This document shows positions 7,889-39,380 of a stretch of 64,000 nt of DNA, piece by piece. This DNA comes from Thermoplasmatota archaeon (GTDB taxonomy: Archaea; Thermoplasmatota; JASEFT01): NCBI GenBank assembly GCA_030018475.1, contig JASEFT010000001.1, positions 15,111 to 79,110 on the forward strand, in the 5' to 3' direction. The position numbers were made by a program, and so were the translations under genes. A model generated the notes under the pieces. It had not been told where the DNA came from. It saw only the letters and a list, made by a program, of their open reading frames with translations, and made no database searches. How positions within the stretch are numbered: position 1 is the stretch's first letter; each line of letters starts with the position of its first letter.

Positions 7889-8332
7889 TCACCAAATTTT
7901 TTCAAATTGTATTTCTGTATTGAGTTGTGCTAGACAGGAAGAACAATAATGCATTCTCAGCGAAGATATGTTACCCTGATAGTGTTCTTTTCCGTCCATA
8001 GCACAACCACAGGTAGTGTCATAGAGACCACAGTTATGCCCCAATTCATGCGTAAAAAACTGTACTTGTCTTTTCCAATATTTGCCCCCTGTCGAAACAG
8101 CATCCCAGTATATCATGTGATCAAAAAGTACGAATGTGTTTCCTGGTCGATAACCTTTCCCCCTATCAGTTTCGTCAATACCGCTTTTATGTGCCATTAT
8201 ACAGTACCTTAACTCAAAGGTAAAAGGGAAGAAACGAAAGGTGGCTAGGTGAAGGACGTAAGCCTCATTCTGTTCAGCCTTTCCTATTACTAGAAAAAGG
8301 CTTGATAGCATGTGACTAAGCGCCCTACTCAC
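7889..8332 (-). CDS. amzA: archaemetzincin-like zinc metallopeptidase
   Basis: HELGHNCGLYDTTCGCAM followed by a downstream CSSC. This fits the archaemetzincin pattern HExxHxxG...C...CxM...CxxC. Confidence 0.55.
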   Translation of the reverse strand: MSRALSHMLSSLFLVIGKAEQNEAYVLHLATFRFFPFTFELRYCIMAHKSGIDETDRGKGYRPGNTFVLFDHMIYWDAVSTGGKYWKRQVQFFTHELGHNCGLYDTTCGCAMDGKEHYQGNISSLRMHYCSSCLAQLNTEIQFEKIW

Positions 8333-8459
8333 AGTCTTGAGCTAGTCATCCTGTTCTTTGGGCTTGCTCTAGAGTAAGATAGCCGTTTCACCAAATCTCT
8401 TTAGAACTTCATGCTCTTGCAATCATCATATACTAAAGAGCTGTGCCGTTTCTGCGCTT

Positions 8460-8745
8460 AACTTAAGGCTCTCGCCTTGCAAGCTTGCGCTTGCGCTCCT
8501 GCTCTCAGAGGGAGGACTTTCCTCAGAAGCCTTTTTCTTTTCTTTCCAAGAAAAGAAAAAGCCTTCAGGGAAAAAAGAAAAGAAGCTACGCAATTAGTAA
8601 TTGTTATTGCATTAGCAATCTTCGTATTCTCAAGGGGTTGCAAGGCAATCCCTTGCTTCTTTTTCTTTTCCACAGAGCGCTTTTCTTTTTCTTTTAAAGA
8701 AAAAAGAAAAGGGCTCCCGTGAGCTATCTGCCTTCTCCTAGCCAT
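8460..8745 (-). ncRNA. candidate structured ncRNA, copy B of a two-member family (unknown function)
   Basis: A series of near-perfect hairpins (GGAA and CUUG loops) with an enclosing helix. ~70% identical to the plus-strand element at 44563-44856, with compensatory stem changes. A TATA-like box (plus 8746-8760) lies just 5' on the minus strand. The ORFs that overlap it are low-complexity artefacts. Confidence 0.5.
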
Positions 8746-13796: not shown

Positions 13797-14465
13797 TTAG
13801 AGATAGAAATCAGCGTTAGGATTGCCATCAAATTGCATCGGCTGATCGTTTGCCCAATCCGTGCCCCAATTAATATAATCAGTATAGTATGCGCTCCAAG
13901 CAGCTGCGAAATTACCTTCCATATCTGTAGAATTAGAATTTCCATTTACCAAGCCCCACTCTAAAAACCAGTAAGTCCAAGCGCCGTTCTGATATTCATC
14001 TACATCATAGCCCAAGCCTGTTACGGTACATGTTGTAGTGCAGTAGAATGTAGAATTGTTTGGAAGCGCTGCAATATTATCAATAAACCCGCCTGAGTAG
14101 CAGTGGTCTAAAAAGATAAAATTTCGGCTTGCTTTTGAATTTGCAAACAAAGCTGCCAGCTCATAATCCCATAAATTGCCGTCCTCACCACTTTCTCCTG
14201 CACCAGAGTCCCACATACAGAGGTAAGCCGAGTTTGCGCCCCCGTAACCTCCGTGCCCTGAAGAAACAAATGCAATAATATCGTTTTCGCCAGCAATTGA
14301 AAGTACGTATTGTAATATTTGCTTTATATTGTATTCAGTTGCATATCCGTCCCACTTAGGATAATTAGATATATTCCCGTCCCCATAGACCCAGCATGTG
14401 TAGCCCTGAGCCACGAAAAAAGTTATACCAGTCTGATGCATCTTCATCGCAGTATGATAAGTCAC
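13797..14465 (-). CDS. caspase-like (clan CD, C11/C13-type) cysteine peptidase domain, frame-shifted C-terminal continuation of the 1953-aa surface protein
   Basis: The domain begins in the upstream ORF (KKYAIIVGISDY...CDEDASDWYNFF). It continues here in another frame (VAQGYTCWVYGDG..., SSGHGG His, LDHCYSGG Cys). The frames meet at a T6 run near plus 14413-14418. A 1-nt change restores one ORF. Confidence 0.6.
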   Translation of the reverse strand: MTYHTAMKMHQTGITFFVAQGYTCWVYGDGNISNYPKWDGYATEYNIKQILQYVLSIAGENDIIAFVSSGHGGYGGANSAYLCMWDSGAGESGEDGNLWDYELAALFANSKASRNFIFLDHCYSGGFIDNIAALPNNSTFYCTTTCTVTGLGYDVDEYQNGAWTYWFLEWGLVNGNSNSTDMEGNFAAAWSAYYTDYINWGTDWANDQPMQFDGNPNADFYL

Positions 14466-17400
14466 TCATAACTTTATAATCTGAAATTCCAACTATGATA
14501 GCGTATTTCTTAGCGCTATAAGAGCTTACAACGTATAAAGTTACCCATTCAAAATATGCGTCATCGTAAGGATTAGGGTCTCCGCCAGGAACTAACGTGA
14601 TTATAGTTGTGCCGCTAACAGATACATTCACACTAGAATAGCTAGATAACAGATAGCCTGCCGGCAGCTCTATAGTAAATATTGCGTTTTGGGTGTAAGG
14701 TATTTTTACTTTGATGTTATGAGCTCCAACTGAAGGTGTTCCGGAAGAATACATATTATAAGAGACTGTAAGCGATATTGGTGCGTTAAGATTCCACATA
14801 CCTGTAATATTGCTAAAAGCAGTTGTCATACCGCCTGGCTGAGTTATGTAATAATATAGATTATCCAAAATGAGTGTATCAGCAGTATTGAAATAAGGGC
14901 TACCGAATTCAGGGCTTGTCCAGAGCATTGTCAGAAACTTTTCAGCTTCACTTTCATCTACTATATAATCGCCGTTACCGAAAAAGTCTATCATTAGTCG
15001 TAGAAGAGCACTACAGTTTATTCCAAACTGGATATTCATTGTTAGCGATAACTGCTCCCAAGTATAGAATTTTGCATAGCCACTCATTGTTATTGGTTCA
15101 GGATGCCCCAAAATAAAGTTTAGAGATATATCATTATACGCGTCAATCTCTTGATAAGCAATCGTTATTGTTCCCCTCGGCATTTCTGCAAATAGTTCTG
15201 CAATACCGATATAATGTCCTGGAGAAACTGCAACCTGATAATAGCCTGTAGAGTCTGTCATACCGCCGTATAGCTTAGAGCTGTTATAGAACCATACTAT
15301 GCCATTTGCTACCGGCTTGTTTTCAGAATCGTAAACATACCCTGAGACCGTAACTGTACCTGACTGTATTATGATCTTGCATTCCAGACTTCCGCCTTGA
15401 GCTACCGTGACTCTAACGGCGTTGCTGCATGGATACGAAGAGGCTAGTATTAACACATTGCCTGCAAGCACGCCTATACTATAATAGCCTGTAGAATCTG
15501 AAAAAGTATAGTTAGACCATTGATAGCCTTTTGCATCAAAACATATTACACTAATAGATGCATACTGTACAGGGTTACCGTTTTCATCACTAACGTATCC
15601 GTAAATTGAGGCGTTAGCAACAGGCATAGGCTCGAGCATTAAGTCCAACTGTAAACTACTGCCTACTAAAAGATATGTGGTTGTATAATTGGAATAGTAA
15701 GCTCCATACATAGATGCGTGAATTCTTACACTCCCTGCAAGCACTCCTATCTTATAATAGCCTGTTTCGTTAGTCCATGTATAATTCCACCAATAATTTC
15801 CTTGCGAGTCGTAACAAGATACGCTTATTGAAGCGTAAGGTATACCAGTATTTGCAACCGCATCTTTTACGTATCCGTAGAGCCATGCGTTAGCAACAGG
15901 TTTCGGCGTTAAGTAGATATCCAGAAGTAGCGATTGCCCTTGGGAAACGGTCACTGTGGTCTCGTTAGAGTAATAACCATCTGCGTAGACGTGAATTTTT
16001 ACACTTCCTGCAAACACTCCTATCTTATAATAGCCTGTTTCGTTAGCCCATGTATAATTCCACCAATAATTTCCTTGCGGGTCGTAACAAGATACGCTTA
16101 TTGAAGCGTAAGGTATACCAGTATTTGTAACCGCATCTTTTACGTATCCGTAGAGCCATGCGTTAGCAACAGGTATAGGAGTTAAGTAGATATCCAGAAG
16201 TAGCGATTGCCCTTGGGAAACAGTCACTGTGGTATAGTTAGAGTAATAACCATCTGCGTAGACGTGAATTTCTACACTTCCTGCAAACACTCCTATCTTA
16301 TAATAGCCTGTTTCGTTAGCCCATGTATAATTCCACCAATAATTTCCTTGCGGGTCGTAACAAGATACGCTTATTGAAGCGTAAGGTATACCAGTATTTG
16401 TAACCGCATCTTTTACGTATCCGTAGAGCCATGCGTTAGCAACAGGTATAGGAGTTAAGTAAATATAATTCCAAATTATCTGGCCCTCTGAGATATTAAA
16501 ATCTTCGCAGTAGTATATATAACCTTCTGCGTAGACGTAAATCCAATAGCTCCCATGCGGTATATGGAATTCGAAATAGCCCGACTCGTTTGTATAAGTC
16601 CAATCGTTGTAGTAGGAATAGTTGCACTCGTAAGAGAACTTTGAGTATATCATCACATATGCACCAGATATAGGCTCTTTCGTTACGTTATCATAAACAT
16701 AGCCTTTCTTCCAGCAGTCTTTAGCTACCGTAGGCTCTAAAGTTATATTGTTCCAAAGCACCTTACCCTGAGCTAAAGTAAATTCTTCGTAATAATCTTC
16801 GTACCCTGCAGACCGTACATATAAGTAATACTTGCCGTGCGGAATGTAAAACTCATAATACCCTGTTGCACTAGTAGAAGTTTGATTGTACCAGCCTACT
16901 TCAGACCATATATACACGTAAGCACCTTTTATAGGCTCCGATGTGCTACTATCCCGAACATAGCCTTTCTTCCAAGAATCTTTTTCAGTACCGTAAGGTA
17001 CTAGGTATATCTTATTCTCTAATGTTTCCCCTTTCTTTATTACGAACTCTTCGTAGTAGCTACTGTAGCCAAAATGGTAGATATAGAGTGAAGCGTTGCC
17101 GTGAGGAATACCAAGCTCGAAGTAGCCTGTTCCGTTTGTATAAGTATAGTTATAATAGTACCAAGACCAGTCTGGTGCATAGGAATAAATGTACACAGAA
17201 ACATTTTGCAGACACTGATTTGTAGCTGAGTCGTACACGTAACCCACCTTCCAACAGTCTACCTCCGGTACATAATAAGGCTCCAGACTGATATTATTCT
17301 GTTTAGTGTCATTCTTTTGAATAGTGAACTCCTCGTAGTATAAATAATATCCCTCAGCCCATACAGAGATATAGTAAGAGCCGTGTGCCAGCCCTAATTT

Positions 17401-20226
17401 GAAATAGCCAGTTGCATTAGTATAAGTCCAGTTATAGAACCACCAACTTTGATTATAAGAGCATACATATACGTAAGCATTACTTATTCCTTTATCTGTA
17501 CTCTTATCATATACTTTACCTTCTTTCCAAGAATCTTCTCTCGGTACATAGTAGGGCTCTAGTTTGATAAGATTCCATTCCGTAGAATTTGGCTTGAGAC
17601 TAAACTCGCCATAATAACTATAGTACCCGTCAGCCCATACATAGATATAATAGGAGCCGTTAGGTATGCCAAGCTCAAAGTAGCCTGTAACATTAGCAGA
17701 AGTCCAGTTATAATACCACCATGTTGCGCTCTTAGAATAAACGTAAACGTATGCATCTTTTATAGGACTGTTCGTTGCGTTATCATAAACATAACCTTTC
17801 TTCCAAGAATCTTCTTTAGGTATATAGTATTTCTCTAGAGCTAAGTGATTCGTTTTAGTCTCGTTCGCATTTAAAGTGAAATTTTCGTAATAAGAATAGT
17901 ACCCTTCGGCATAGACGTACAAATAGTAACTGCCGTGCGGCAATGAGAAATTGAAGTAGCCTGTACTATCGGTAGATGTGTAATTCCAGTAGTACCAGTA
18001 GTCTGTAGAATAAATGTACACGTAAGCGCCCTCGATAGACATGTGATTTTCTTTATCGTATACATATCCTTCTTTCCTACAATCATCCACAGTAGTCGGG
18101 GCTTTAAGACGGATATTATTCAATACAATCTCGCCACTTTTCAAATTGAAACTTTCGTAATAAGAGTAGTACCCTTCAGCCCAAACGTAAATTTCGTATT
18201 TGCCTGCGGAAAGATTGAATTTGAAAGAGCCGTTTGCATCTGTTTGTGTATAGTTATAGAATGAGTAGTCTGCAGAATATACATAGACCCATGCGCCTTC
18301 TATAGGAGTAAACGAGCTTGCATCGCAAACGTATCCTTTCTTCCAGCCCTCAACAACGCCTTCAATGTAAATATCGAAGAACACGTCGAAGAAGCTATCA
18401 TGGACTATGTGCACTTCATGGTTGCCTGAAGATAAGTTCTTGACAGCGCATGTACCATTAACAGTTTTACCTTGATATACGCTGTCAGTAAATATTTTCG
18501 CATTACTTATAGGATAGTTTGTGCTATTCCATACATAGAACTCAACATCGTTGTAAATTCCATCTCCATCAAAGGCAGATATTGTGTAATCTGTAGTCAT
18601 ATAATCGCCGACAGTAAATTCTGTATAGGCATATAGAGTTGCATAGTACACATCAACTTTATATTTGCCCGGAGAGAGGTTAGAAAGGTAAAGTTTACCC
18701 TCTGCAGATGTGTTGCCTCTATAATTACTGTTTAATATTACGCTTGCATTCGCTACCGGCGTGTGATTAGAATCTTTCACATAGACCCAGCCGCTATCTA
18801 ATGCTAATACATTCCAATCCCAAAGCCATTCTGCATAAATAAAGTATCCAACTTCTGCAGTTGCATTGCCAGTATATAGAGAGCCTGCCTTTACCGCTTT
18901 TATAATGTGCTTACCGTGAGGGAGAGTAACTCTCAAGTTCCCAGTGCTGTTAGTCTTCCCCATATACCTGTTGTTAATATATATAATTGCATCAGCAACA
19001 GCACCTGTATCGTTGTACACATGTGTCACTACTGGCGAATATCCTCCACCAACACCACGTGTGCTGGGAAGTACTTCAGTAGTAATATAAAGTGTATTAC
19101 CTACATCTATAACTGTACTTGAGACAAAAGTTTGATAAATTGCTTTGACTTCACGCCAGCCATCAGCCACGTTGAGCGCTTCAAAATCGCCAGGCGCGAA
19201 ATCGCCAGGGCCTGTCTTACCTTTGTATTTTCTATCTATGTAAATGGAAGCATTATCTACAGGTAAATTATTAGAATCGCAAACAGATATGCGCAAATCG
19301 TTATTGTAGCCTATACCGTCGATATTTTTCTTTTCAACCTTAATACTAATCCCAGTTATAGCTCTTACACTCGTAGTCAGCGCTATTGAATCTTTTTTGG
19401 TAGGGTCACTAGTAGAAGTAGCATTTACCCAGACCGTCAACTGCGCACCTTCAGCAAAATCGCCAGCAGTGACTCTAAGTGTGAGCTCAGCAAAATCGCC
19501 TGGCGCAAGTGCCTTTTCTGCAAATTTCGTAAAGTCGCCTGGAGCAAAGACGATCTCAGGACTTAAATTAAAACTCACAGGCCAATCTAAAGAGCTTCTT
19601 GTAATTGTCAAGTTAATTGTATCGCTTACAGTTCCGTTATTTTTTACAGTAATTTCGTATATCACACTTCTGCCACGAGTTATGTACTTACTAAGCTCCA
19701 GACAGCTTAGCTCTATTCCATAAGGTGATATTGCAGTTGTAGTTCTAGAAATAGAAGAGCTCTTGGTAGGATCTCCTTGAGAAGTCCCTGTTACTGTTAT
19801 CGCTGCAGAACCAACAGCATGTGGTGCAACTACATTAAGTGTTATTGTGGTCTCTCCACCTGCATCTAATATAACAGACTCGCTACTAAGTGTAGCAGTC
19901 CAACCCGTAGGGGGCGAAGTCCTAGAAATAGAGATTGTATCTTTTACATTACCAGTATTTCTTACAGATATTTGGTAAGTAGCTGTAGCACCGATATTAA
20001 TGGTTTTGTCAGGTTCTGCACAGCTCAGCTCAACTCCGTATACTGCAGCAGTAGGCGCTACCCAAGGCTTCATTAAAACTACTGCGCATGCAGCCACTAC
20101 TATAGCTACCGCAGCAACCGCTACGCCAATTAAAACTTTCTTCTTCACCATTTCTTTCAACCTCTTTTTATGTGCTTTTTCAATAAAATCCTCAATCTCT
20201 CTCCACTCATTTCTTTCCTTTGCCAT
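14365..20226 (-). CDS. giant cell-surface protein (N-terminal TM anchor, CARDB-like domains, ~16 transthyretin/CarboxypepD_reg-like repeats), 1953 aa
   Basis: Cytoplasmic N-terminus plus TM (VLIGVAVAAVAIVVAACAVVLM). Repeated ~91-100-aa units (KxGYVYD...GYFEL.IPHGSYYIYVWAEGYY...). Very dense NxS/T sequons. Confidence 0.8.
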   Translation of the reverse strand: MAKERNEWREIEDFIEKAHKKRLKEMVKKKVLIGVAVAAVAIVVAACAVVLMKPWVAPTAAVYGVELSCAEPDKTINIGATATYQISVRNTGNVKDTISISRTSPPTGWTATLSSESVILDAGGETTITLNVVAPHAVGSAAITVTGTSQGDPTKSSSISRTTTAISPYGIELSCLELSKYITRGRSVIYEITVKNNGTVSDTINLTITRSSLDWPVSFNLSPEIVFAPGDFTKFAEKALAPGDFAELTLRVTAGDFAEGAQLTVWVNATSTSDPTKKDSIALTTSVRAITGISIKVEKKNIDGIGYNNDLRISVCDSNNLPVDNASIYIDRKYKGKTGPGDFAPGDFEALNVADGWREVKAIYQTFVSSTVIDVGNTLYITTEVLPSTRGVGGGYSPVVTHVYNDTGAVADAIIYINNRYMGKTNSTGNLRVTLPHGKHIIKAVKAGSLYTGNATAEVGYFIYAEWLWDWNVLALDSGWVYVKDSNHTPVANASVILNSNYRGNTSAEGKLYLSNLSPGKYKVDVYYATLYAYTEFTVGDYMTTDYTISAFDGDGIYNDVEFYVWNSTNYPISNAKIFTDSVYQGKTVNGTCAVKNLSSGNHEVHIVHDSFFDVFFDIYIEGVVEGWKKGYVCDASSFTPIEGAWVYVYSADYSFYNYTQTDANGSFKFNLSAGKYEIYVWAEGYYSYYESFNLKSGEIVLNNIRLKAPTTVDDCRKEGYVYDKENHMSIEGAYVYIYSTDYWYYWNYTSTDSTGYFNFSLPHGSYYLYVYAEGYYSYYENFTLNANETKTNHLALEKYYIPKEDSWKKGYVYDNATNSPIKDAYVYVYSKSATWWYYNWTSANVTGYFELGIPNGSYYIYVWADGYYSYYGEFSLKPNSTEWNLIKLEPYYVPREDSWKEGKVYDKSTDKGISNAYVYVCSYNQSWWFYNWTYTNATGYFKLGLAHGSYYISVWAEGYYLYYEEFTIQKNDTKQNNISLEPYYVPEVDCWKVGYVYDSATNQCLQNVSVYIYSYAPDWSWYYYNYTYTNGTGYFELGIPHGNASLYIYHFGYSSYYEEFVIKKGETLENKIYLVPYGTEKDSWKKGYVRDSSTSEPIKGAYVYIWSEVGWYNQTSTSATGYYEFYIPHGKYYLYVRSAGYEDYYEEFTLAQGKVLWNNITLEPTVAKDCWKKGYVYDNVTKEPISGAYVMIYSKFSYECNYSYYNDWTYTNESGYFEFHIPHGSYWIYVYAEGYIYYCEDFNISEGQIIWNYIYLTPIPVANAWLYGYVKDAVTNTGIPYASISVSCYDPQGNYWWNYTWANETGYYKIGVFAGSVEIHVYADGYYSNYTTVTVSQGQSLLLDIYLTPIPVANAWLYGYVKDAVTNTGIPYASISVSCYDPQGNYWWNYTWANETGYYKIGVFAGSVKIHVYADGYYSNETTVTVSQGQSLLLDIYLTPKPVANAWLYGYVKDAVANTGIPYASISVSCYDSQGNYWWNYTWTNETGYYKIGVLAGSVRIHASMYGAYYSNYTTTYLLVGSSLQLDLMLEPMPVANASIYGYVSDENGNPVQYASISVICFDAKGYQWSNYTFSDSTGYYSIGVLAGNVLILASSYPCSNAVRVTVAQGGSLECKIIIQSGTVTVSGYVYDSENKPVANGIVWFYNSSKLYGGMTDSTGYYQVAVSPGHYIGIAELFAEMPRGTITIAYQEIDAYNDISLNFILGHPEPITMSGYAKFYTWEQLSLTMNIQFGINCSALLRLMIDFFGNGDYIVDESEAEKFLTMLWTSPEFGSPYFNTADTLILDNLYYYITQPGGMTTAFSNITGMWNLNAPISLTVSYNMYSSGTPSVGAHNIKVKIPYTQNAIFTIELPAGYLLSSYSSVNVSVSGTTIITLVPGGDPNPYDDAYFEWVTLYVVSSYSAKKYAIIVGISDYKVMSDLSYCDEDASDWYNFFRGSGLHMLGLWGREYI
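15620..16460. repeat. intragenic tandem repeat, 273-bp period, ~3 near-identical copies (91-aa protein repeat)
   Basis: The string gccatgcgttagcaacagg recurs at 15883, 16156 and 16429. Long stretches between them are identical. Confidence 0.85.
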
Positions 20227-20322: not shown

Positions 20323-21957
20323 GTGCAAAAATTTACTATAAAGGAGAGAACGCTACTCCATCTTTTAGAGTGCGGATTGCCAAAAGAGGACATGCATGGT
20401 GAAATTGACGCTAGCTATTCGCAAGAAGGTATTTCTTTAGCTATTGGCGCTGCTAGAAGTCTTGTCTCTAGAGCTGTTGAAGAGCTTGAGGAGCAAAAAT
20501 TTATACTTGCAACTTCAGCGCGAGTAATAGGAAAAAGAGCTAAAGTAAAAGTTTATTATTTAACTAGTGAAGGTATAAAAAAAGCTAAAGAGTTGAAGAG
20601 CGATGCTGATAATTTAACTTTAACTGTGAAAGATTTTAATAGCAAACTGAAGGAAGTTAAAGTTAGTGATTTGAAAAAAGAGTTGCCAGAACTTTCTATT
20701 GTCAAAATTCTAAAGCTGGCGTCTGAAAAAGAGTATTTAGCATTTGAAGATTTAAATGCTTTAGCAAAAGCAGCGCAATTTGTTGATTTCTCTTCTCAAG
20801 CGCCTAAACTAAGATATTTTTTCGGTCGTGATAAAGAACTTGCGCTGCTGAGAAGCTGGGTTGAAGATAGCGAGACTAAAATTATTGCTATCAGAGGAAT
20901 TGCAGGGATAGGTAAGAGCGCACTTTGCTCTCGATTTATCAACATTGTAAAAGGAGAAAGGAATGTTTTTTGGTATACAGTGCAAGAATGGACTACGCAG
21001 ACCGATATTCTCCAGCTACTATCGCGATTTATGTATGCTATGAACAAGCCAGCACTTAACAACTATTTGAGTCCTACTAAAGAACCACAGCTTGAAGAAA
21101 TATCTAAATTATTGCAAGCCGAACTTCACGGTACTAATACTATCTTGGTATTTGATGATATAGACAAAGCTCAATCCGAAGTCGCAGTATTTTTCAAATC
21201 TTTATTTGCTCGATTGAAAAACACCCAGAAAGTAAAATTTTTAATTGTTGGGAGATGGCTGAAAGAACTTTATACTGTTAGAGAGGTAGCTATAGAAAGA
21301 GCAGTTAAGGAACTTACGCTGGAAGGTTTGAATGAGAGAGGTGCTTTTGAGCTTTTAAAAGCCAGAGGTTTTGTAAAAGAGCTGAAAAAGCTTTATGAGA
21401 GTACTGCTGGCCATCCGCTATGCCTTGAGCTAATTGATTACAAAGGTGTTAAGCGCAATGTCGCAAGATATATACGAGAAGAGATATTTTCAAAGCTCAG
21501 TGAGCAGGAGCGAAAAGCGCTAAGCTTGAGCTCTGTGCTCAAAGCGCCTTTTTCATCAGAAGTACTCTTTAAATCAGGTATAGAGCCTACTACTGTAGAG
21601 ACTCTTACAGAAAAATCACTACTCCATGTATATGAGAATGATACTTATAGTACCCATGATTTGATTAAAAACTTCTTCTGTAGCAGACTAACAGCGCAAG
21701 AGCTGGCTTTACATCATAAAACAGCTGCTCACTACTATGATGAGATTGAAGATTATCTTGAGGCTGCCTTCCATTATCTGCAGGCTGGCGATAGGGCTCA
21801 GTCTTTAGAACTACTTGCAAGCAGAGCAGAAAAGATTTTAGAGCAGGGTAATGAAGAAGAGTTAAGAAAGTTAGCCGAGAAAATAGCGCTCGAGGATTTG
21901 AGCTTTGAAGAGCGCGCTAAGCTAGCGAGAATAGAAAAGGTATTAATGCAAACTTGA
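20323..21957 (+). CDS. HTH-AAA ATPase-TPR-like (STAND/Arch_ATPase-type) putative regulator
   Basis: N-terminal wHTH (ISLAIGAARSLVSRAVEEL), Walker A GIAGIGKSAL, Walker B LVFDDID, and a C-terminal helical repeat region. Divergent from the giant surface-protein gene. Confidence 0.55.
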   Translation: MQKFTIKERTLLHLLECGLPKEDMHGEIDASYSQEGISLAIGAARSLVSRAVEELEEQKFILATSARVIGKRAKVKVYYLTSEGIKKAKELKSDADNLTLTVKDFNSKLKEVKVSDLKKELPELSIVKILKLASEKEYLAFEDLNALAKAAQFVDFSSQAPKLRYFFGRDKELALLRSWVEDSETKIIAIRGIAGIGKSALCSRFINIVKGERNVFWYTVQEWTTQTDILQLLSRFMYAMNKPALNNYLSPTKEPQLEEISKLLQAELHGTNTILVFDDIDKAQSEVAVFFKSLFARLKNTQKVKFLIVGRWLKELYTVREVAIERAVKELTLEGLNERGAFELLKARGFVKELKKLYESTAGHPLCLELIDYKGVKRNVARYIREEIFSKLSEQERKALSLSSVLKAPFSSEVLFKSGIEPTTVETLTEKSLLHVYENDTYSTHDLIKNFFCSRLTAQELALHHKTAAHYYDEIEDYLEAAFHYLQAGDRAQSLELLASRAEKILEQGNEEELRKLAEKIALEDLSFEERAKLARIEKVLMQT

Positions 21958-28673: not shown

Positions 28674-29800
28674 GTTCTTCCCACTCCCAGCTTTTTTACA
28701 GCTCTAACAAGTTCCTCGCGAGTAATACTCTTGCCCCTTACTATTTTAGTAACTACAGGGTCGATACTATCTAGTTGTTTGTCGTTCAAGAGCTCAATCT
28801 GAGATATGTTGTAAGCTATTTTAACTTTTTCAACCACAGCTTTTGCAGCTCTTTCGTAAATATTTTGAGGCTCGTAAGACTTAAATTCTCTAATATTGAA
28901 CTCGTGCTTCCAAGGTATTTTGCCTTTTGATTTTATTATCACGCAAGCAAGTACAGCACCAACAATAATAGAACTTAATACAACCCATAACTGGTACGAA
29001 GTTAAGAATATTATGGTAGCGAGTGCTATATAGCTGCCGTGTCTGCTTTCATCGAAAATTACAACGGCATACTCTGATTGCGGCAGTAGCGAGCTTACAA
29101 GCTCTAGAATAAAGTCCAAATTATCTTGCTTCACTATCATTCGATTAATAAATATACTGGGATCGGCGATAAAAACTATAGCGCCTGCGCCAAACTTGAT
29201 TTTTAGAATTAGGGGCATGTCTTGAATAAGCTCGTCATCTAAATCTATGATTCGATTGCCATTCCAATCGATATAACATTCTAAAGCTTTACATATTATT
29301 TCAATTTCTTCACCATATATTCTAAACCCTGTAGGAATGTTAAATACAAGCTCATATTTTTTACCGTTGAGCACTGCGCAAGCATTTACAAATTCAGGTG
29401 AATCAGTAAAACTTTCATAATATATTCTGTGCTCGTAAAATGTAAAATTGAATTTTTCAGCTAAATTTCTTATGTTGCCGGTATCGTCTGCAATTATAGC
29501 CTTGCCGCCATTTTGCACAAACTCGTAAATACCCCAGGCTTCTTCTTCTGTATAAGGCTTCTCCACACCTGTAACAATAAGTAAAGTATCAGCGGGATTT
29601 AGATTCTGTAGTAATATGGGCGTTGATACAATACATTTAGGAATGTAGTTCCTTGCTTTAAGCTCTTCTCTTAGAATTGACACATCTGCCCAGCTAGTAT
29701 CGTAACCTGAAAGTTGCTTGGTATTGTAAGAAGGAATAAGTAAAATTGCAAGAGTTGTTATTATGAAAATACTAATTAGAATCTTAATTTTCAACTTCAT
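28670..29800 (-). CDS. bitopic membrane protein with GATase1-like ectodomain (DUF4350-like)
   Basis: N-terminal signal anchor, central GGKAIIADD-containing domain, and a second TM near the C-terminus. 4-nt overlaps on both sides. Confidence 0.4.
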   Translation of the reverse strand: MKLKIKILISIFIITTLAILLIPSYNTKQLSGYDTSWADVSILREELKARNYIPKCIVSTPILLQNLNPADTLLIVTGVEKPYTEEEAWGIYEFVQNGGKAIIADDTGNIRNLAEKFNFTFYEHRIYYESFTDSPEFVNACAVLNGKKYELVFNIPTGFRIYGEEIEIICKALECYIDWNGNRIIDLDDELIQDMPLILKIKFGAGAIVFIADPSIFINRMIVKQDNLDFILELVSSLLPQSEYAVVIFDESRHGSYIALATIIFLTSYQLWVVLSSIIVGAVLACVIIKSKGKIPWKHEFNIREFKSYEPQNIYERAAKAVVEKVKIAYNISQIELLNDKQLDSIDPVVTKIVRGKSITREELVRAVKKLGVGRT

Positions 29801-32800
29801 TTTCTTTTCATCCGCTCTTCTAACTCTTTTATACTAAGCTCTACAGCATTAAAATTTGCTATTGCCGCATCTCTATGCTTAGAGCTAATTTCATGATGCG
29901 AGTATCGTACTTCTTCTATAATACCAATAAACTTATCAAGGCACTCTTCAGCTATAGGCAAAGCCTTTCTAACTGCATATTCAAACTCTCTAAAAGTTTC
30001 AAAGCTTTTGCGCAAGAAGCCGAATTTTTTCAAATGCACACATAGTTTGCGATAGAGCTCTAGTATTGTTTTGATATAAGCGCTTCCTGCAACTAGCTCA
30101 CCTTTCGCAGATTCTATAATTTTGCGCATTTTAGCTATCTGGCGCTTTCGTAGTATGCAATAGCCCACGAAAGGTATTGGAAGTGCTAGTAAAGGCAGTA
30201 GATAGAGCCAAGTTGGGATTGCATATAACTTCCTCTCGTAAACACTAACGTTACAAACTATACTCGAAGGTATGTAGTAGTCATAATACTCAGTACCTGC
30301 AAACTCAGTTATCCCCTCTAATGTAAGGGTTCCTGTAAAGGTTGGAACGATTAGAGAGAAGCTCAGATTACCTTTACTATCTGCTTGCAATATTCGCTCT
30401 GCCATACCTGTTTCGTTTGTTAAAAGCTCATCAACTCTATTGCCAATCTTCAGTACAATTGTAATATTTTCTAGCTCTTCATCAACCAATCTCAGTTTTA
30501 ACTTTATATTTGCATTTGAAAGTCTAGGATTTAGCGAAAGCAAGCATTTAAGTTCGCAGCCTGCTTCTATAGCCGGTAGCGTATCGATAGCAATTTTAAC
30601 TCTTTCTTTTACAGCAATTGACTCCTCAAACTTAGAGCTTTCATAGTACCCAGAGCCGTTAAATTCGATTTTTATAATTTGACAGCCTAAGCTTATAGAG
30701 CCCGTAAGTATGCCAGTAAAGTTAGCAATGCCATTAATATCAGTACATGCATTTCCTAAACTGTGATTTGCAATGCTCAACAACATATATTTGCGAGCTA
30801 TTGGCAGTAAAGAATCGGTTTCTAAAAGCAGCGCTTCTATCGTAAAATTTTCGTATCTAACTAACAGCTCAGGCATAAACACTAAAATTGTAGTGTTTGA
30901 GTAAATTTTATAATACGTTATATTTTCAGAAGGCTCGTAAATATCGGTGCCGCTAAATTTAGCGCTAACTTTAGCCTCGCCAACAGCATCTAAAGCAGGG
31001 ATATTGTAGTAGAACGAGAACCCGCTAAAGTTAGTGACTGCAGCTCCAATTTGCCTGTCTCTCCAGAAAATACTAATTAACTGATTTGCAACAATGCTGC
31101 ATTGGTCATCTAATAAAGTACCGTTAATCTCTACAGTTGAATTTTTATAAATTTTTTCTGCTTTAGCAAGCACTAACGTTGTGTTTGAATAGATAGTATA
31201 GATGGCAGTAGCTTCAGAGCTATTATAAAAGTCTGCTCCTGAAAACTTAACGGTTACATTAACTTTTCCTACTGAATGATTGTAAGGAATATGATAAAGA
31301 CAGCTGAAAAAGCCTGAAGAATTAGAATGAGCAGTGATTGTTGTAGTATTCCAATGGATTTCTAAATCAACTTCTAAAGGCACGTATTGATCGTCTACTA
31401 TACTTCCTGAAATTTCTACTGTTGCGTTTCTAATCGATCTTTTACCAGCAACTTGAATATATGTCTCAGAGTAGATTTCGTAATATACTTCCGTGTGATT
31501 TGATTCGTATTTAGAAGATTGATTGAGCTCAGCTCTTATTTTTACATTACCAAGGCTCTGACTTGATTCTACAAGCCAAGCAAAAGAAAATTTACCTACG
31601 CTTGTAGTTGTAGTGTTTATAAGACTGTCATTCCAGAAAATTCTAATTGTTAATTCCTCGTCACTTATCATCATACCATTATCTGCAAAAATACTACAGG
31701 CAATATCCACAGTACTATTTCTTATAGCTCTACTAGGCTCTAACCTCAGCTCAATTCTTGTTTCCGAAGTTATTGTGTAATTTACAATTGCCTCAGAGCG
31801 AGCGAAAGTCTCGTTCTCTTCAAACACTGCTTTTACAGTTACATTTCCAAGAAAATGGTCTGAAGGTACCAGATAGGTGTAGGAAAACCAGCCTGTGGAA
31901 TTAGTAATATTGCTACCTATTTGCTCCTCGTTCCAGAACAGCGAGATATTAGCATTGTGCATATCTTCTCCATCGTCATCGAAGACACGACCTTTAATCT
32001 CAGTAGTATAGCGACGAACAGCTCTTTTACCTTCAAGAATAATATTAGCACCTCGCTGTACTGTGTAAGTTGTATTATTAGAACTGCTTTCATAATAATT
32101 TGAGCCACTAAAATTAGCAGTAACGTTTATAGTATTCGAGGGAGGAGCTCCCACGTAGAACTCTACACTGAAATTTCCAAATTCATTGGTTGTTGCGTTT
32201 TTTTCACTGTTATCCCACCAGCGTACAGTCACATTCTCGTCTGCGAGCGTAACATTCATATTATCAACTAAAGTCCCGGTAACATCTGCAGTTTTATTCC
32301 TTCCCACAACTTTAGAATTTAAAAGAATTTGAGTTTTTCTTTGTACAGTAACATTCAGCTCAGCACTCTTTTCAAGCCAGTACACTGAGCGCGGGTGAAA
32401 AACACGTATTATATGATTGCCTGCAGTTGTAATCAATGGAACAGTGTAATTAATTCTAAAATAGCCTTGCGAAAGAGTTTTAGTATCGTTTTTTGAAACA
32501 TTGTCTAGCAGCAACTCTACAGTCTCGTTCACTAACGCTGTGCCATCATCATCCTCTAGTTCGCCACTAATAGAAATATTATTACCGACAACCACAGAAG
32601 TTGTGCTCTCCACTACATTTATCACTACTTGGTGCATTACTTTAATTTTAGTCTCGTTCCAAGAGCTATTTCTATAGGTATCGCCCTCGAAACTTACATT
32701 TAATGGATAGCAGCCAGCTCTTTCTTTAGGAATAAAACTAAAGTTAAACGTGCCGTTTAGAGCAGGGTCTGAGGACAGCACAGTAACGAGTTCTGATAGC

Positions 32801-33063
32801 TTTGTATTATTCCAAGAAATGTTTAGAGTAGCGCCCCCAACACCGTTATAGCCTGGCACTTCAAATAACCTGCCTTCAACGCTTAAGCTTGTGTTGTTCT
32901 CTACCCAATCACGTGTGTATAAGTGTATTGTTGTGTTTGACGTTATATTGATATCGTCTCTTTCTACTTGAGCTATAATAACAGAAAACTGTGAGCTTTC
33001 TAAACTCATTATTGAGACTGACAGAAAAAGTACAATTCCAGAAAACATCAAAAATTTTTTCAT
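29797..33063 (-). CDS. giant glycoprotein-like surface protein (Ig/CARDB-like repeats) with C-terminal TM and cytoplasmic DUF4129-like tail, 1088 aa
   Basis: Signal peptide, ~950-aa sequon-dense ectodomain, then TM (WLYLLPLLALPIPFVGYCIL). Tail carries the ETFREFEYAV motif reminiscent of DUF4129. Confidence 0.65.
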   Translation of the reverse strand: MKKFLMFSGIVLFLSVSIMSLESSQFSVIIAQVERDDINITSNTTIHLYTRDWVENNTSLSVEGRLFEVPGYNGVGGATLNISWNNTKLSELVTVLSSDPALNGTFNFSFIPKERAGCYPLNVSFEGDTYRNSSWNETKIKVMHQVVINVVESTTSVVVGNNISISGELEDDDGTALVNETVELLLDNVSKNDTKTLSQGYFRINYTVPLITTAGNHIIRVFHPRSVYWLEKSAELNVTVQRKTQILLNSKVVGRNKTADVTGTLVDNMNVTLADENVTVRWWDNSEKNATTNEFGNFSVEFYVGAPPSNTINVTANFSGSNYYESSSNNTTYTVQRGANIILEGKRAVRRYTTEIKGRVFDDDGEDMHNANISLFWNEEQIGSNITNSTGWFSYTYLVPSDHFLGNVTVKAVFEENETFARSEAIVNYTITSETRIELRLEPSRAIRNSTVDIACSIFADNGMMISDEELTIRIFWNDSLINTTTTSVGKFSFAWLVESSQSLGNVKIRAELNQSSKYESNHTEVYYEIYSETYIQVAGKRSIRNATVEISGSIVDDQYVPLEVDLEIHWNTTTITAHSNSSGFFSCLYHIPYNHSVGKVNVTVKFSGADFYNSSEATAIYTIYSNTTLVLAKAEKIYKNSTVEINGTLLDDQCSIVANQLISIFWRDRQIGAAVTNFSGFSFYYNIPALDAVGEAKVSAKFSGTDIYEPSENITYYKIYSNTTILVFMPELLVRYENFTIEALLLETDSLLPIARKYMLLSIANHSLGNACTDINGIANFTGILTGSISLGCQIIKIEFNGSGYYESSKFEESIAVKERVKIAIDTLPAIEAGCELKCLLSLNPRLSNANIKLKLRLVDEELENITIVLKIGNRVDELLTNETGMAERILQADSKGNLSFSLIVPTFTGTLTLEGITEFAGTEYYDYYIPSSIVCNVSVYERKLYAIPTWLYLLPLLALPIPFVGYCILRKRQIAKMRKIIESAKGELVAGSAYIKTILELYRKLCVHLKKFGFLRKSFETFREFEYAVRKALPIAEECLDKFIGIIEEVRYSHHEISSKHRDAAIANFNAVELSIKELEERMKRK

Positions 33064-33066
33064 TTT

Positions 33067-36000
33067 TTACCATTCATCCCAAGCTTCTAAATACTCATAG
33101 GTGGCTTCTGATTTAGCAGCAATTGTAGCAGTACCAGCACTAATATTTTCAGGTACTTGGCATTCCACAATAAATTCGCCTGATTCGTTTGTCTTATTTA
33201 TACCTACAACGTAAGAGATTCCAGATTGATTAAGATAAATTGTTACTGTTATGTTTGGAATAGGCTGCGTAGGATTACTTGCATTAACAACTTTACCTCT
33301 CACCCAAAAACGTTCGCCTTTATAATAAAAATCTTTTAAAGGCCAAATCTCTAGAATAGTAATTTCTGCAACGTATCTCCCAACTGTTTGGTCGTCATTA
33401 GGATTTGTTGGGTTTGTGCCCCCCCCAACTTCAGTACCATCGCTTACACCGCCACCGTCACTGTCAGGGTTTGTTGGGTCTGTGCCAATGCTCAGCTCGC
33501 CAATGAATATTACCAGAGCATCGGTGCAATTATAGATTATACCACGATTCATAAGATGATTATACCGCTCCAAACCTTGATCGGTTGTTGTAGGCGTTAC
33601 GGTCTCAGTTATATTATAATCGCATAACATATACCAACACGTCCACGTTACAGTATTTACAGTTATATTAAATCCATCGAGCAGCCTATCCAAATCAGTA
33701 TCACAATGTGTTGGATTTGTGTCAGTTACTAAGAACTCAAATCTGTTAGTTAAGCCATCTAGATCTGGGTCTTCAGAATCGTCATTTCCATATGTAGGAT
33801 TAAAGCCATATTTAACCTCCCAGCCATCCCAACATCCGCAACAATCGCTATCTGGATTTAGCGGGTTTGTTATATATAGGTTGGGATAGCCGTCTCTTTC
33901 TACTATTCCAAGCTCATCGCCATCCCAGAGCCAATCTCCATCAGTATCTGGATTGTTAGGGTTTGTGCCGTAAATATTTACTTCTTCCCAGTTAGTCAGA
34001 CCATCGCCGTCACTATCTGCAGTCTCATTTTTTACGAGAGGGTTAGTCCCTAAAGTTAGCTCACCATAGAACGTTATGGTACCATCCAAGTTGTCGATAT
34101 GCGCAATACTATAATTTAAGAAATACCTGTAAAGCTCTGAGTTATTCATCACTATAAGATTATATCCATCCAGGAAAGTGTCGCTGTCAGTGTCTGGAGA
34201 CAATGGGTTGGTATTGTAATTTAGGTTGCCATCGCCATCCCAATCTATTTCAGATTCTTGGTAATAGGAGCTCATTTCAGCTCCGTCTAGCAAGCCGTCG
34301 CTGTCGCAATCCGGATTTAATGGGCTAGTGCCATTCCACCAAACGCCATACCAAGGAACAGCCCACCAGCTTGGAATTGAAACTAAATATTCCTCTAAAT
34401 TTGTGAGATTATCCTCGTCTTCGTCATTACCTGAATCTATTGAGCTGAGCGGATTAAGATTATAGCTTGCTTCCCAGCCATCAGGCATACCATCATTATC
34501 AGTATCCCAATTTATTGGGTTTGTGCCGTTCCACCAAACGCCATTCAAAGGAACGTCCCAGGCTGTTGGGAGATTAAATTGATATTCTTCTAAATTTGTT
34601 AAATTATCGTTATCTGCATCCAAAAGAGAATCATTAGCAAGCGGATTTAGCTGATAGAAAAACTCCCAGCCGTCAGGCATACCATCATTATCAGTATCCC
34701 AATTTATTGGATTTGTGCCGTTCCACCAAACGCCATTCATTGAAACACTCCAGTTATTAGGAATATTAAACAAATATTCTTGAAAATTAGTTAGTGCATC
34801 GCTATCGCTATCGCCGGCACTGTCATTTCTTCTAGGGTCGATATTCCAGTAATAGAAATCAATTTTGTAAACTGCATATTTTACTTCCCAGCCGTCAGGC
34901 ATACCATCACTATCAGTATCCCAGTTGTTAGGATGAGTGAGCCATGCTTTGACCTCATCGCCATCCAAAAGCGCATCGTTATCGCTATCGTAATTACATG
35001 GGTTTGTGGGTTTAATATCTGGGTAGCGCCAAACTAGCGCTCTAAAACAACTTCTTAAAAATACTTCTTCGTAGTCAGTCAATCCATCGTTATCAGTATC
35101 TTTAGCGCAAGGATTCGTAAAACTAATATTGTAAAGTTTGTAGAGTTCAGGAAACACTAATTTCAGAAATACTTCTTGGTAATCGTTTAGTCCATCTCCA
35201 TCAGTATCTGGATTAATTGGAGATGTATTGTAAAGTTTTACCTCATCGCCATCTATAAGGCCGTCGTAATCAGTATCGTTTAGTCTCGGATCTGTGAGTG
35301 CTAAGTATTCTTCTAAGTTAGTTAAATTATCCAAATCCTCGTCACTATAGGTATCGTTTGCAAGGGGATTTAGTCTGTAAAAAACTTCCCAGCCGTCAGG
35401 CATGCCATCGCTATCGCTGTCGGGATTGCGAGGATTTGTGCCTGCTAAATATTCTTCTAGATTTGTGAATTTTTCATCTTGGTCGATTGCTCCATTCCTA
35501 TCAAAATCGTAACCATCATTGTCAGGATCTTCGCTTGAATCGTCTCTAAGCGGGTCTAGTAAATAGTAAACTTCCCAGCCGTCAGGCATGCCATCGCTAT
35601 CAGTATCTGGGTTTGTGGGATTTGTTTTATAAATGTAAATCTCGTCGTAGTCGCCAAGACCATCGTTATCTGTATCGTTATTTTTAGGATTTGTGCCTGC
35701 TAAATATTCTTCTAAGTTTGATAACCCATCGTCATCCAAATCTAAAGAAGAGTCATTAGCCAGTGGGTTTAGTCCATAGAATACTTCCCAGCCATCAAGC
35801 ATGCCATCGCTATCAGTATCGTTATTACCAGGATTCGTGTCAGCTAGATATTCTTGAAGATTTGTAAGGCCATCGCTGTCAATATCGCAATTAGAGTCTG
35901 CACGATTTGGGTCTGCAGGCTGGTATTTGTCTTCAGCCATATCGAACCATAATCGATATTTTACTTCCCACCCATCTGGAATACCGTCTCCGTCAGTATC

Positions 36001-36210
36001 CGGATTAGTGTAGTTAGTTGCAGGAAAGCCGGGTGGATAGCCGAGCTCTTTTATATCAGGTAGTCCATCTTCATCTGTATCTATAAGTGGTATTTGCTCC
36101 TCTTTGCCTTCAAATACATGTTGCGCATACCTTAAAGGATAAAACTGAAAAAAATGGATCAAAAACAGTATGGCGATAAGCGCGAGAATTGCAAGTATTA
36201 GCTTCTTCAT
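33067..36210 (-). CDS. secreted protein with ~25 thrombospondin type-3-like Ca-binding repeats, 1047 aa
   Basis: Repeated NPxNxDTDxDGxxDGWE motifs throughout. N-terminal signal/TM and a C-terminal beta-sandwich-like domain. Confidence 0.75.
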   Translation of the reverse strand: MKKLILAILALIAILFLIHFFQFYPLRYAQHVFEGKEEQIPLIDTDEDGLPDIKELGYPPGFPATNYTNPDTDGDGIPDGWEVKYRLWFDMAEDKYQPADPNRADSNCDIDSDGLTNLQEYLADTNPGNNDTDSDGMLDGWEVFYGLNPLANDSSLDLDDDGLSNLEEYLAGTNPKNNDTDNDGLGDYDEIYIYKTNPTNPDTDSDGMPDGWEVYYLLDPLRDDSSEDPDNDGYDFDRNGAIDQDEKFTNLEEYLAGTNPRNPDSDSDGMPDGWEVFYRLNPLANDTYSDEDLDNLTNLEEYLALTDPRLNDTDYDGLIDGDEVKLYNTSPINPDTDGDGLNDYQEVFLKLVFPELYKLYNISFTNPCAKDTDNDGLTDYEEVFLRSCFRALVWRYPDIKPTNPCNYDSDNDALLDGDEVKAWLTHPNNWDTDSDGMPDGWEVKYAVYKIDFYYWNIDPRRNDSAGDSDSDALTNFQEYLFNIPNNWSVSMNGVWWNGTNPINWDTDNDGMPDGWEFFYQLNPLANDSLLDADNDNLTNLEEYQFNLPTAWDVPLNGVWWNGTNPINWDTDNDGMPDGWEASYNLNPLSSIDSGNDEDEDNLTNLEEYLVSIPSWWAVPWYGVWWNGTSPLNPDCDSDGLLDGAEMSSYYQESEIDWDGDGNLNYNTNPLSPDTDSDTFLDGYNLIVMNNSELYRYFLNYSIAHIDNLDGTITFYGELTLGTNPLVKNETADSDGDGLTNWEEVNIYGTNPNNPDTDGDWLWDGDELGIVERDGYPNLYITNPLNPDSDCCGCWDGWEVKYGFNPTYGNDDSEDPDLDGLTNRFEFLVTDTNPTHCDTDLDRLLDGFNITVNTVTWTCWYMLCDYNITETVTPTTTDQGLERYNHLMNRGIIYNCTDALVIFIGELSIGTDPTNPDSDGGGVSDGTEVGGGTNPTNPNDDQTVGRYVAEITILEIWPLKDFYYKGERFWVRGKVVNASNPTQPIPNITVTIYLNQSGISYVVGINKTNESGEFIVECQVPENISAGTATIAAKSEATYEYLEAWDEW

Positions 36211-36212
36211 AG

Positions 36213-39200: not shown

Positions 39201-39380
39201 AACATAATTTTTCCAGCTTGCTGCTGCAGGATGCATTGAGCTGACTGTATTATTAGACAAATTCACAGGATCTTCCCAGGTTGTTAGTCTGTTAGAACTA
39301 CTCAGAGCTACGAGAGTAATATTACTGACAACTATAGAACTTAAAACAGCCAGTACAATTACAAATTTATGCACAGTCAA
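36213..39380 (-). CDS. BNR/Asp-box beta-propeller surface protein with CARDB-like domains and C-terminal TM anchor, 1055 aa
   Basis: Asp-box motifs (SSTNGSSWD, SSDNGDNWS, STDKGLSWT). C-terminal TM plus basic tail (IVVAIAVAITITLGL-RELRRRSKKRR). Confidence 0.75.
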   Translation of the reverse strand: MTVHKFVIVLAVLSSIVVSNITLVALSSSNRLTTWEDPVNLSNNTVSSMHPAAASWKNYVHVVWEDAQGIRYNRSSSSGCVWEEVNIPASSLGRSPAIAVWQNYVHIVWVKGNFIYYLRSSTNGSSWDFYPKTIISAYCSEVRIALNETELYIVWHDQCYIRLANSSDNGDNWSPAYTIAYGYYIKNPAIACWNDSVYVAWQESEDLYTWDIYCSFSTDKGLSWTERRVTNTLSCSEKPAIAANETDAWIVWQDNRDGNWEIYWANLTALEQKKLTTTSGDSKNPAIAVNDTGIYVVWSDSTPGNFEIYLGVSYNGITWDCERVTYTNICVSDCPTLCLDNTTNIFWHDNLDGDFDIYYTRPEKERYQLKLECEINSKELNFNSSVNYTIILKNLGSRVDNIELRWEFSNQQVDTLNWSASLNLTALILEPRKDATVNLTVTASTPDINSKAYILVIAHSNYGNIEDSIETVTSIIPIYNLALECEYSSSIVEAGGIAYYTISVQNRGNRRDNVYLLDLIQVSVPFGWDSSLSDYELVLEHSETKYFYLCVKAPEADKGIAEVKVRALSKYDSTKRDYVTTYTGIKNFTIDLSCDEATKYAVPGATLNYTINVWNLVGSGEINFELNTTLWNASLSEDRIYLATGAKSLIYLYLKVPENAISGECLKVNLTSKLENYTGNIILTAIVAPIYNITAIYNKTFVIEPGKNESLNLGFKNNGNVENLLKFKLLAKPPNWEVSLSYLNFSILPNELKYLEILIFAPRAASAEEEYYLELNVSAKNVSFILNITIEVAQYYDFNIACEKPVVAGAPNTTVKYNIEVENLGNGKDIILLISNFGWLENTSSVLNLSERKNISVRVHIPFKIDNFSYEFELLIQSCGNNSLVKKITLKLILLLPDFKFADIKISNLNPKAGEEVRIRVGITNEGNITMQNVLVSLYENDALFKSEEISVLMANEVVYLWFTWYAKPGSYILRIELDPENRFPELNEDNNVFIQKFEVSFIEFWNIYLYIVVAIAVAITITLGLRELRRRSKKRRATYIYSLKKQLMKKQLIK

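Follow-up and report, generated by a model that had tools for sequence, protein, structure and literature searches.

In the influenza A virus PA-X gene, a +1 ribosomal frameshift occurs by P-site slippage on UUU_C within UCC_UUU_CGU, as seen by mass spectrometry, with an efficiency of ~1.3% (Firth et al., 2012, PMC3498833). Slippage there is aided by the rare CGU, the affinity of tRNA-Phe is higher for UUC than for UUU, and altering UCC lowers shifting without abolishing it (PMC3498833). UUU_C sites with CGN in the A site were predicted as a class, their use in cellular genes was raised as a question (Firth et al., 2012, PMC3498833), and "PA-X-like" UUU_CGN sites were listed for fijiviruses, amalgaviruses, and chronic bee paralysis virus (PMC3498833). 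In bacteria, UUU_Ynn is a +1 shift-prone tetranucleotide, and Yersinia forms a YopN-TyeA +1 fusion (Atkins et al., 2016, PMC5009743). Homopolymer frameshifts can also be kept by selection via transcriptional slippage, as in Thermus dnaX (A9), Shigella mxiE (T9), and the poly(A) tracts of endosymbionts (PMC1088944, PMC5009743). For Archaea, a 2021 review named the -1 frameshift at A_AAA_AAU in Saccharolobus solfataricus fucA1 as the only experimentally shown cellular case, +1 frameshifting having been only suggested, for one haloarchaeal virus (PMC8211752). Searches of the literature after that review found no cellular archaeal +1 frameshift. Here, we describe a candidate for such a shift in a gene for a giant surface protein (13797..20226, minus strand) within a stretch of 64,000 nucleotides from an uncultured Thermoplasmatota archaeon (contig JASEFT010000001.1), referred to as the window.

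Standard decoding of the gene yields a 1953-amino-acid (aa) protein from the 0-frame open reading frame (ORF; 14365..20226, minus), with the C-terminal sequence ...DWYNFFRGSGLHMLGLWGREYI. Split at the junction, this end reads ...KKYAIIVGISDYKVMSDLSYCDEDASDWYNFF-RGSGLHMLGLWGREYI: the first 34 residues of a caspase-like domain are followed by a 16-aa out-of-frame tail, and the TAA stop codon (14365..14367, minus) lies 16 codons 3' of the shift site. The remainder of the domain is encoded in the frame that is +1 relative to the upstream frame, by 207 codons plus a stop (13797..14420, minus). The ORF that contains this continuation (13797..14465, minus) translates to ...GITFFVAQGYTCWVYGDG...SSGHGG...LDHCYSGG...DFYL* and reads ...GITFF-VAQGYTCWVYGDG... 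around the junction. Both frames meet at AAC TTT TTT CGT, where the run is exactly T6 (minus strand, 14421..14416). Within the shift site TTT_TTT_CGT (UUU_UUU_CGU; 14413..14421, minus), the CGT at 14413-14415 is the 0-frame A-site codon. Deletion of one T from the run gives a single ORF of 2142 aa with zero internal stops, which is the predicted transframe product and agrees with the ~2140 aa given by a first-pass annotation of the window. In public annotation, the locus always appears as two "hypothetical protein" entries, the giant one and one of 205-216 aa.

The domain in question is, judged by its sequence and its predicted structure, a peptidase of clan CD, family C14 (orthocaspase/metacaspase-like), with predicted activity. 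The Pfam profile PF00656 (Peptidase_C14) matched the fused 241-aa C-terminus with 34.1 bits (cut-off 21.4; E 3e-8), covering residues 5-149 of the fused domain and crossing the frame junction. Similarly, the "caspase" profile of PADLOC matched the domain (E 2.6e-9). A profile of 54 homologues retrieved yeast, plant, and trypanosome metacaspases from the PDB (E 1e-10 to 1.5e-5), with metacaspase-1 (4f6o) at E 1e-10. The predicted catalytic residues are H88 of the fused domain (codon CAC, 14253..14255, minus; SSGHGG) and C139 (codon TGC, 14100..14102, minus; LDHCYSGG). Both are invariant in the 54 homologues, and their motifs align with sGHG and DsChSG of metacaspases.

An AlphaFold2 model of the fused domain reached a predicted local distance difference test score (pLDDT) of 94.7 and a predicted template modelling score (pTM) of 0.93. 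In this model, the two halves fold as one caspase domain with the caspase-hemoglobinase fold. Strand beta1 comprises residues 4-10 and helix alpha1 residues 23-36, with the frame junction F33/F34 inside alpha1. The 0-frame part of the domain (SAKKYAIIVGISDYKVMSDLSYCDEDASDWYNFF; 14416..14517, minus) thus supplies beta1 and most of alpha1. Foldseek searches of the PDB with the model returned GSU0716 (3bij), the MALT1 paracaspase, Yca1, AtMC9/MC4, legumain, and caspases (E 1e-11 to 1e-7, template modelling score ~0.65-0.73). The first-pass annotation had placed a His/Cys clan-CD peptidase domain, split by a +1 change at a T6 run, at the C-terminus of the giant protein, and both the ORFs and the fold confirmed this. 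Its comparison with clostripain and legumain was not borne out at the family level: Peptidase C13 (legumain) scored 15.2 bits, under the cut-off of 22.8, legumain being a fold match at the level of the clan only, and Peptidase C11 (clostripain) and C25 (gingipain) gave no match at E<=1.

With orthocaspases and metacaspases (MEROPS/Pfam C14, clan CD), the domain shares the caspase-hemoglobinase fold and a dyad of His and Cys within SGHG and D(H)CxSGG motifs. Furthermore, its acidic C-D-E-D motif after beta1 aligns with the C-x-N-D region of metacaspases. Unlike in these enzymes, the domain lies at the far C-terminus of a putatively membrane-anchored repeat protein of 2142 aa and would be reached only by recoding. 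Homologues with an uninterrupted frame, from Asgard archaea and Thermoplasmata (260-460 aa), repeat the layout of the giant protein in miniature, a beta-sandwich (CarboxypepD_reg, PPC, or Big_7) preceding C14 at the C-terminus, and by sequence comparison this is the normal architecture of the family.

Two 90%-identity clusters around the downstream ORF held eight proteins, all of 139-216 aa, and the contigs of these clusters supplied nine related loci. Together with the window, these are 10 sequences representing 8 distinct alleles from four lineages, which differ by 12-17% at the nucleotide level. The loci stem from NCBI metagenome-assembled genomes (MAGs; L009 and L011, three such MAGs with the window), JGI metagenomes (L012 and L013), ENA assemblies (L014 and L015), and Logan assemblies (L001, L010, and L016), that is, from at least four sources, several assemblers, and separate projects. 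The +1 ORF of the window is identical to MDI6855187.1 from a "Candidatus Thermoplasmatota archaeon" MAG.

The 19-mer GACTGGTATAAC-TTTTTT-C is invariant in the window and all nine loci, and in 10/10 sequences the same +1 shift is required at the invariant GACTGGTATAACTTTTTTC. UUU_UUU_C occurs in 10/10 sequences and UUU_CGU in 9/10. A T6 run should be prone to indels; here its length is constant in 8/8 distinct alleles, although the flanks have diverged, and none of the 8 alleles has the frame repaired by a one-base deletion. The +1 frame is open over exactly 207 codons, without an indel, in 7/8 alleles (9/10 sequences), and H88 and C139 are retained wherever the +1 ORF is intact (9 sequences, the window counted). 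The split is therefore real beyond chance, as the C14 match spans the junction and the same split recurs in nine related contigs. By these comparisons, the shift predates the separation of at least four diverged lineages and is invariant in sequence.

Beyond these lineages, all 43 distant homologues that were fetched (<=62% identity) have a single frame across the junction. The closest of them (P0003/L052, 62%) has GAC TGG TAT AAT TAT CTG at the corresponding site. Its upstream architecture is not readable because the start of the ENA contig is adapter sequence: L052:1-70 translates to ...SDVYKRQ and DTATTEIYT, which we take to be an Illumina/Nextera adapter signature, so that this contig end would be contamination, not genome. 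Scans of genome and metagenome contigs returned only distant homologues (<=55% identity), all in frame, and no intermediate of 62%-84% identity that could date the origin of the shift.

Purifying selection acts on the coding sequence on either side of the shift, as judged from the aligned alleles. Between lineages, the 207 codons of the +1 frame showed a synonymous divergence (dS) of 0.44-0.78 and a nonsynonymous to synonymous ratio (dN/dS) of 0.12-0.23. The proportions of synonymous (pS) and nonsynonymous (pN) differences were 0.34-0.48 and 0.07-0.11, respectively (pN/pS ~0.2, Fisher p 1e-12 to 1e-21). In the 0 frame, this stretch would contain 14-17 stops, and in a neutral simulation with substitutions only, the probability that all four lineages stay open was ~6e-5. 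Constraint was just as strong over the 31 domain codons upstream in the 0 frame: five lineage pairs were informative there and gave a pN/pS of ~0.1-0.2 (p 6e-7 to 7.5e-4), and L014 and L001, which form the sixth pair, do not differ over these codons. These 31 codons retain the residues that are invariant in the 54 homologues. The first-pass annotation had reasoned that reads uniformly showing T6, together with orthologues terminating at the same place, would indicate a genuine split or a pseudogene. This test is too simple: the orthologues do terminate there, but the constraint on both frames argues for recoding rather than for a dead gene or a true split.

With moderate confidence, we interpret the locus as one recoded gene in which +1 frameshifting is programmed and takes place on the ribosome, tRNA-Phe moving from UUU to UUC. 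Specifically, most ribosomes would decode the 0 frame to the 1953-aa anchored surface protein of beta-sandwich repeats, which would have no functional protease domain. On some ribosomes, the second UUU would be occupied by peptidyl-tRNA-Phe (anticodon GAA) while the A site awaits the rare CGU, and the tRNA would slip one base forward to UUC, where a better G:C pair forms at the third codon position. Translation in the +1 frame would then continue for 207 codons and yield the 2142-aa isoform (...DWYNFF-VAQGY...) with a complete C-terminal Peptidase_C14 domain. The outcome would be a protease-less major isoform and a protease-tipped minor isoform. By analogy with PA-X (~1%), the shift efficiency is presumably low, and the role of the shift would be to keep the protease-bearing form scarce relative to the plain surface protein. 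One may speculate that the supply of Arg-tRNA and the state of wyosine modification of tRNA-Phe could modulate the shift. The predicted junction-spanning tryptic peptide is ...VMSDLSYCDEDASDWYNFFVAQGYTCWVYGDGNISNYPK, in which NFFV would correspond to a +1 shift or a U5 mRNA and NFFFV to a -2 shift; the predicted peptide of the 0-frame product is ...DWYNFFR.

The archaeal site appears to fit the class of Firth et al., that is, UUU_C with CGN in the A site. It shares with PA-X the identical UUU_CGU core, the re-pairing of tRNA-Phe from UUU to UUC that is proposed here, an Arg codon that is rare and may be slowly decoded in the A site of 9/10 sequences, and the +1 direction. Additionally, no strong RNA structure is apparent in either case, and the transframe product shares its N-terminus with the 0-frame product and gains a new C-terminal part. 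In the 33 long ORFs of the window, CGU is used 3.2 times per 1000 codons (8% of Arg codons). The site is the only in-frame TTT_CGT in these ORFs and the only sense-strand TTTTTTCGT inside any ORF of the window; with 1 in-frame TTT_CGT observed and 1.4 expected, avoidance was not detectable in these ORFs, the number of codons being very small. PA-X belongs to a eukaryotic virus and its product has been seen by mass spectrometry, whereas the present gene is a cellular archaeal one, known from DNA alone, with an E-site UUU that makes up the T6 and with one lineage carrying CAU in the A site. Moreover, the +1 part completes a domain begun in the 0 frame, whereas PA-X adds an unrelated peptide.

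The bacterial UUU_Ynn sites and YopN-TyeA resemble the locus in having UUU followed by a pyrimidine, prokaryotic translation, no adjacent stop, and two frames fused into a functional hybrid. YopN and TyeA, however, also work separately, whereas here the host is archaeal and the two frames encode halves of one fold. Like fucA1, the locus is a cellular archaeal gene in which two ORFs make up one enzyme fold, with a homopolymeric site conserved in close relatives and with full-length distant homologues. The fucA1 shift is a -1 event at an X_XXY_YYZ heptamer with flanking rare codons and a stem-loop, in contrast to the +1 P-site slippage on UUU_C proposed here. Slippage of this type with a hungry A site is known from viruses and bacteria; in the literature searched, it has no description for a cellular gene of Archaea or for this gene family.

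The main rival to programmed ribosomal slippage is transcriptional slippage, which we regard as unlikely. The archaeal RNA polymerase would sometimes make U5 in place of U6 on a weak rU:dA hybrid, so that a subset of in-frame mRNA would encode the 2142-aa protein. Oligo-T tracts pause and terminate archaeal RNA polymerase, which counts for this explanation, as does the invariance of the homopolymer in all alleles, including the first TTT, which ribosomal slippage on UUU_C alone would not strictly require. Furthermore, polymerase slippage rescues conserved homopolymer frameshifts in bacteria (Thermus dnaX, PMC1088944; Shigella mxiE, PMC5009743), and the locus resembles these and the endosymbiont cases as an ancient homopolymer frameshift that was kept while the downstream frame stayed under purifying selection. 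Their tracts are typically >=9 nt, however, whereas the run here is 6 nt in all alleles, shorter than the A/T runs (~8-9 or more) that in bacteria typically show productive slippage and are selected against (PMC1088944), a threshold that may not be archaeal. T6 runs are common in the window (55, besides 31 A6 runs, at 38% GC), which argues against strong slipperiness. In addition, the C after the run and the rare CGU suit slippage in the ribosomal P site and would have no bearing on a polymerase. From the sequence context, we infer that the shift is made by the ribosome rather than by RNA polymerase.

Translation of two genes is a less probable explanation still. The downstream ORF would start at an overlapping ATG or GTG (216 or 205 aa), and its product would act alone or pair non-covalently with the beta1-alpha1 stub. 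Gene callers annotate separate ORFs in every assembly, a +1-frame ATG (inside GAT GAA) is present in all alleles, and purifying selection on the +1 ORF demonstrates its translation but not the route. This ATG, however, is dictated by the conserved 0-frame Asp-Glu, and no conserved Shine-Dalgarno (SD)-like motif precedes it in the aligned sequences. The 205-216-aa product would have no signal sequence and, from a fold that is predicted as one unit with high confidence, would miss beta1 and the larger part of alpha1. Selection on the upstream 0-frame stub as part of the domain would be left unexplained, and the domain is in one piece in all 43 other homologues.

We consider it very improbable that the locus is an old pseudogene in slow decay, in which production of the protease domain has ceased and only residual conservation is seen. 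Decay is visible in L016 (940-1300), a degenerate copy that still has T6. Its domain has gained one G (GGGG where the others have GGG) and is interrupted by an insert of ~80 nt, which contains stops and an internal direct repeat (CGATTCCGAAGTAT / CAATTCCGAAGTAT); this is either a true pseudogene or a small mobile insert. A distant caspase homologue (L049:8268-8632 and L050:962-1326) is likewise cut to a C-terminal fragment, with LDACRSGG in place of LDHCYSGG and a match that extends over two frames; this is probably what is left of a pseudogene in a different archaeon. Against residual conservation stand the 207 open codons in all alleles but that of L016, the pN/pS of ~0.2 at a dS of up to 0.78, the result of the neutral simulation, and the retention of the catalytic His and Cys together with all family-invariant residues. 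Recent pseudogenisation, one of the possibilities listed in the first-pass annotation, is contradicted by a shift that predates the lineages and by purifying selection on both halves.

It is hardly credible that the T run was misread or misassembled, or that it varies reversibly in phase in the genome by slipped-strand mispairing, even though a one-base homopolymer change in a surface-protein gene is the classic setting for both: the same T6 and shift recur in the window and nine other assemblies from different assemblers and projects, the window contains no other frameshift-like ORF pair or broken gene and hence does not appear error-ridden, and the tract does not vary over 8 diverged alleles, whereas contingency loci are expected to vary in tract length between strains, with some alleles ON. 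Among the four origins that the first-pass annotation had considered, a programmed +1 frameshift is accordingly the one that survives these comparisons.

Several observations nevertheless weigh against programmed +1 ribosomal slippage. The A-site codon of L001 is CAU, which is common (10.7 per 1000 codons) and not the rare CGU, and the E-site codon is UUU rather than the UCC of PA-X. No convincing conserved stimulatory RNA structure was found around the site, and the aligned sequences contain no SD-like element of the prfB type upstream of it. Minimum-free-energy folds of the 90 nt 3' of the site (7 alleles) differed among alleles. Consensus folding with RNAalifold of the regions -6..+110 and -90..+12 gave weak stems (-14 and -7 kcal/mol, respectively) with an unfavourable positive covariation term and one compensatory pair each. 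The better of these stems was rejected as a downstream barrier, as it sequesters the shift site itself. We know of no RNA structure at PA-X-type sites. Synonymous conservation near the site is marginal, with variation in 2/11 codons versus a background of 47% (~p 0.05), and similar runs of low-variation codons were found elsewhere in the domain. The additional lesions of L016 show that the domain can be lost. Finally, DNA alone does not separate a +1 from a -2 shift, or ribosomal from transcriptional slippage, as the resulting proteins are identical or almost so.

We put at about even the chance that the locus is the first conserved, selection-maintained +1 programmed ribosomal frameshift in a cellular archaeal gene, one that uses the minimal UUU_CGU signal of PA-X and sets a low, possibly tunable ratio of protease-tipped to plain giant cell-surface protein. 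Archaeal recoding is almost unexplored, and the locus offers a testable cassette of ~20 nt with comparative support from four diverged lineages and with the decayed L016 copy as a natural negative control. The split in the annotation hides a caspase-family protease. The locus also bears on prokaryotic caspase homologues, as this one would lie outside the cell on an adhesin-like or S-layer-like body, with frameshifting apparently setting its dose.

As for that body, a Lys/Arg-rich start is followed by a hydrophobic N-terminal segment read from the sequence (aa 31-52, VLIGVAVAAVAIVVAACAVVLM; 20071..20136, minus), which is probably a signal-anchor and would leave the remainder of the protein extracellular. 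Behind it, the giant protein consists of DUF11/CARDB-like immunoglobulin (Ig) domains and 13 CarboxypepD_reg repeats. A tandem repeat at 15717-16466 (minus; 273-nt unit, 2.7 copies, 97% identity) corresponds to three near-identical CarboxypepD_reg units and may reflect a recent duplication or a copy number collapsed or expanded by short-read assembly. Homology between lineages starts only 36-40 aa before the shift site, and the bodies of the giant proteins upstream are unrelated: L012 has right-handed beta-helix-like repeats (L012:1-1140), L016 has a different, Asp-rich repeat (L016:1-946), and the compared counterpart in the window (14518-16500, minus) is related to neither. The C-terminal 247 aa of the 0-frame protein, used as a query, brought up no relatives of the body, only of the caspase stub. 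The conserved unit thus appears to be a cassette of caspase domain, frameshift, and downstream DHH gene, and the alignments suggest that different surface-protein bodies were swapped onto it by recombination.

The window is archaeal chromosome, with genes for ProRS, PheRS-beta, CoaBC, a DHH nuclease, and CBS proteins and an archaeal RNase P RNA (8247-8538, minus; Rfam RF00373, 133.7 bits). The ORFs listed at 8458-8745 overlap this RNA and are therefore not genes. Divergent from the caspase-bearing gene lies a gene (20323-21957, plus) for a 544-aa protein in which an N-terminal helix-turn-helix (HTH) precedes a STAND-type NTPase (AAA_16, NB-ARC, NACHT-like). Prokaryotic conflict systems are known to pair caspases with STAND proteins; for a defence-system reading of these neighbours, PADLOC gave only weak or generic matches, the STAND protein matching PDC-S27 at E 1e-4. 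Two other large ORFs, 51763-55824 (minus, 1353 aa) and 57500-59992 (plus, 830 aa), had no Pfam match at E<=1e-5. Three consecutive ORFs of ~1050-1090 aa at 29797-39380 (minus) form a second cluster of large extracellular proteins, with Big_3_5, CarboxypepD_reg, and DUF4129 domains, bacterial TSP3 repeats, and CARDB/DUF11 domains.

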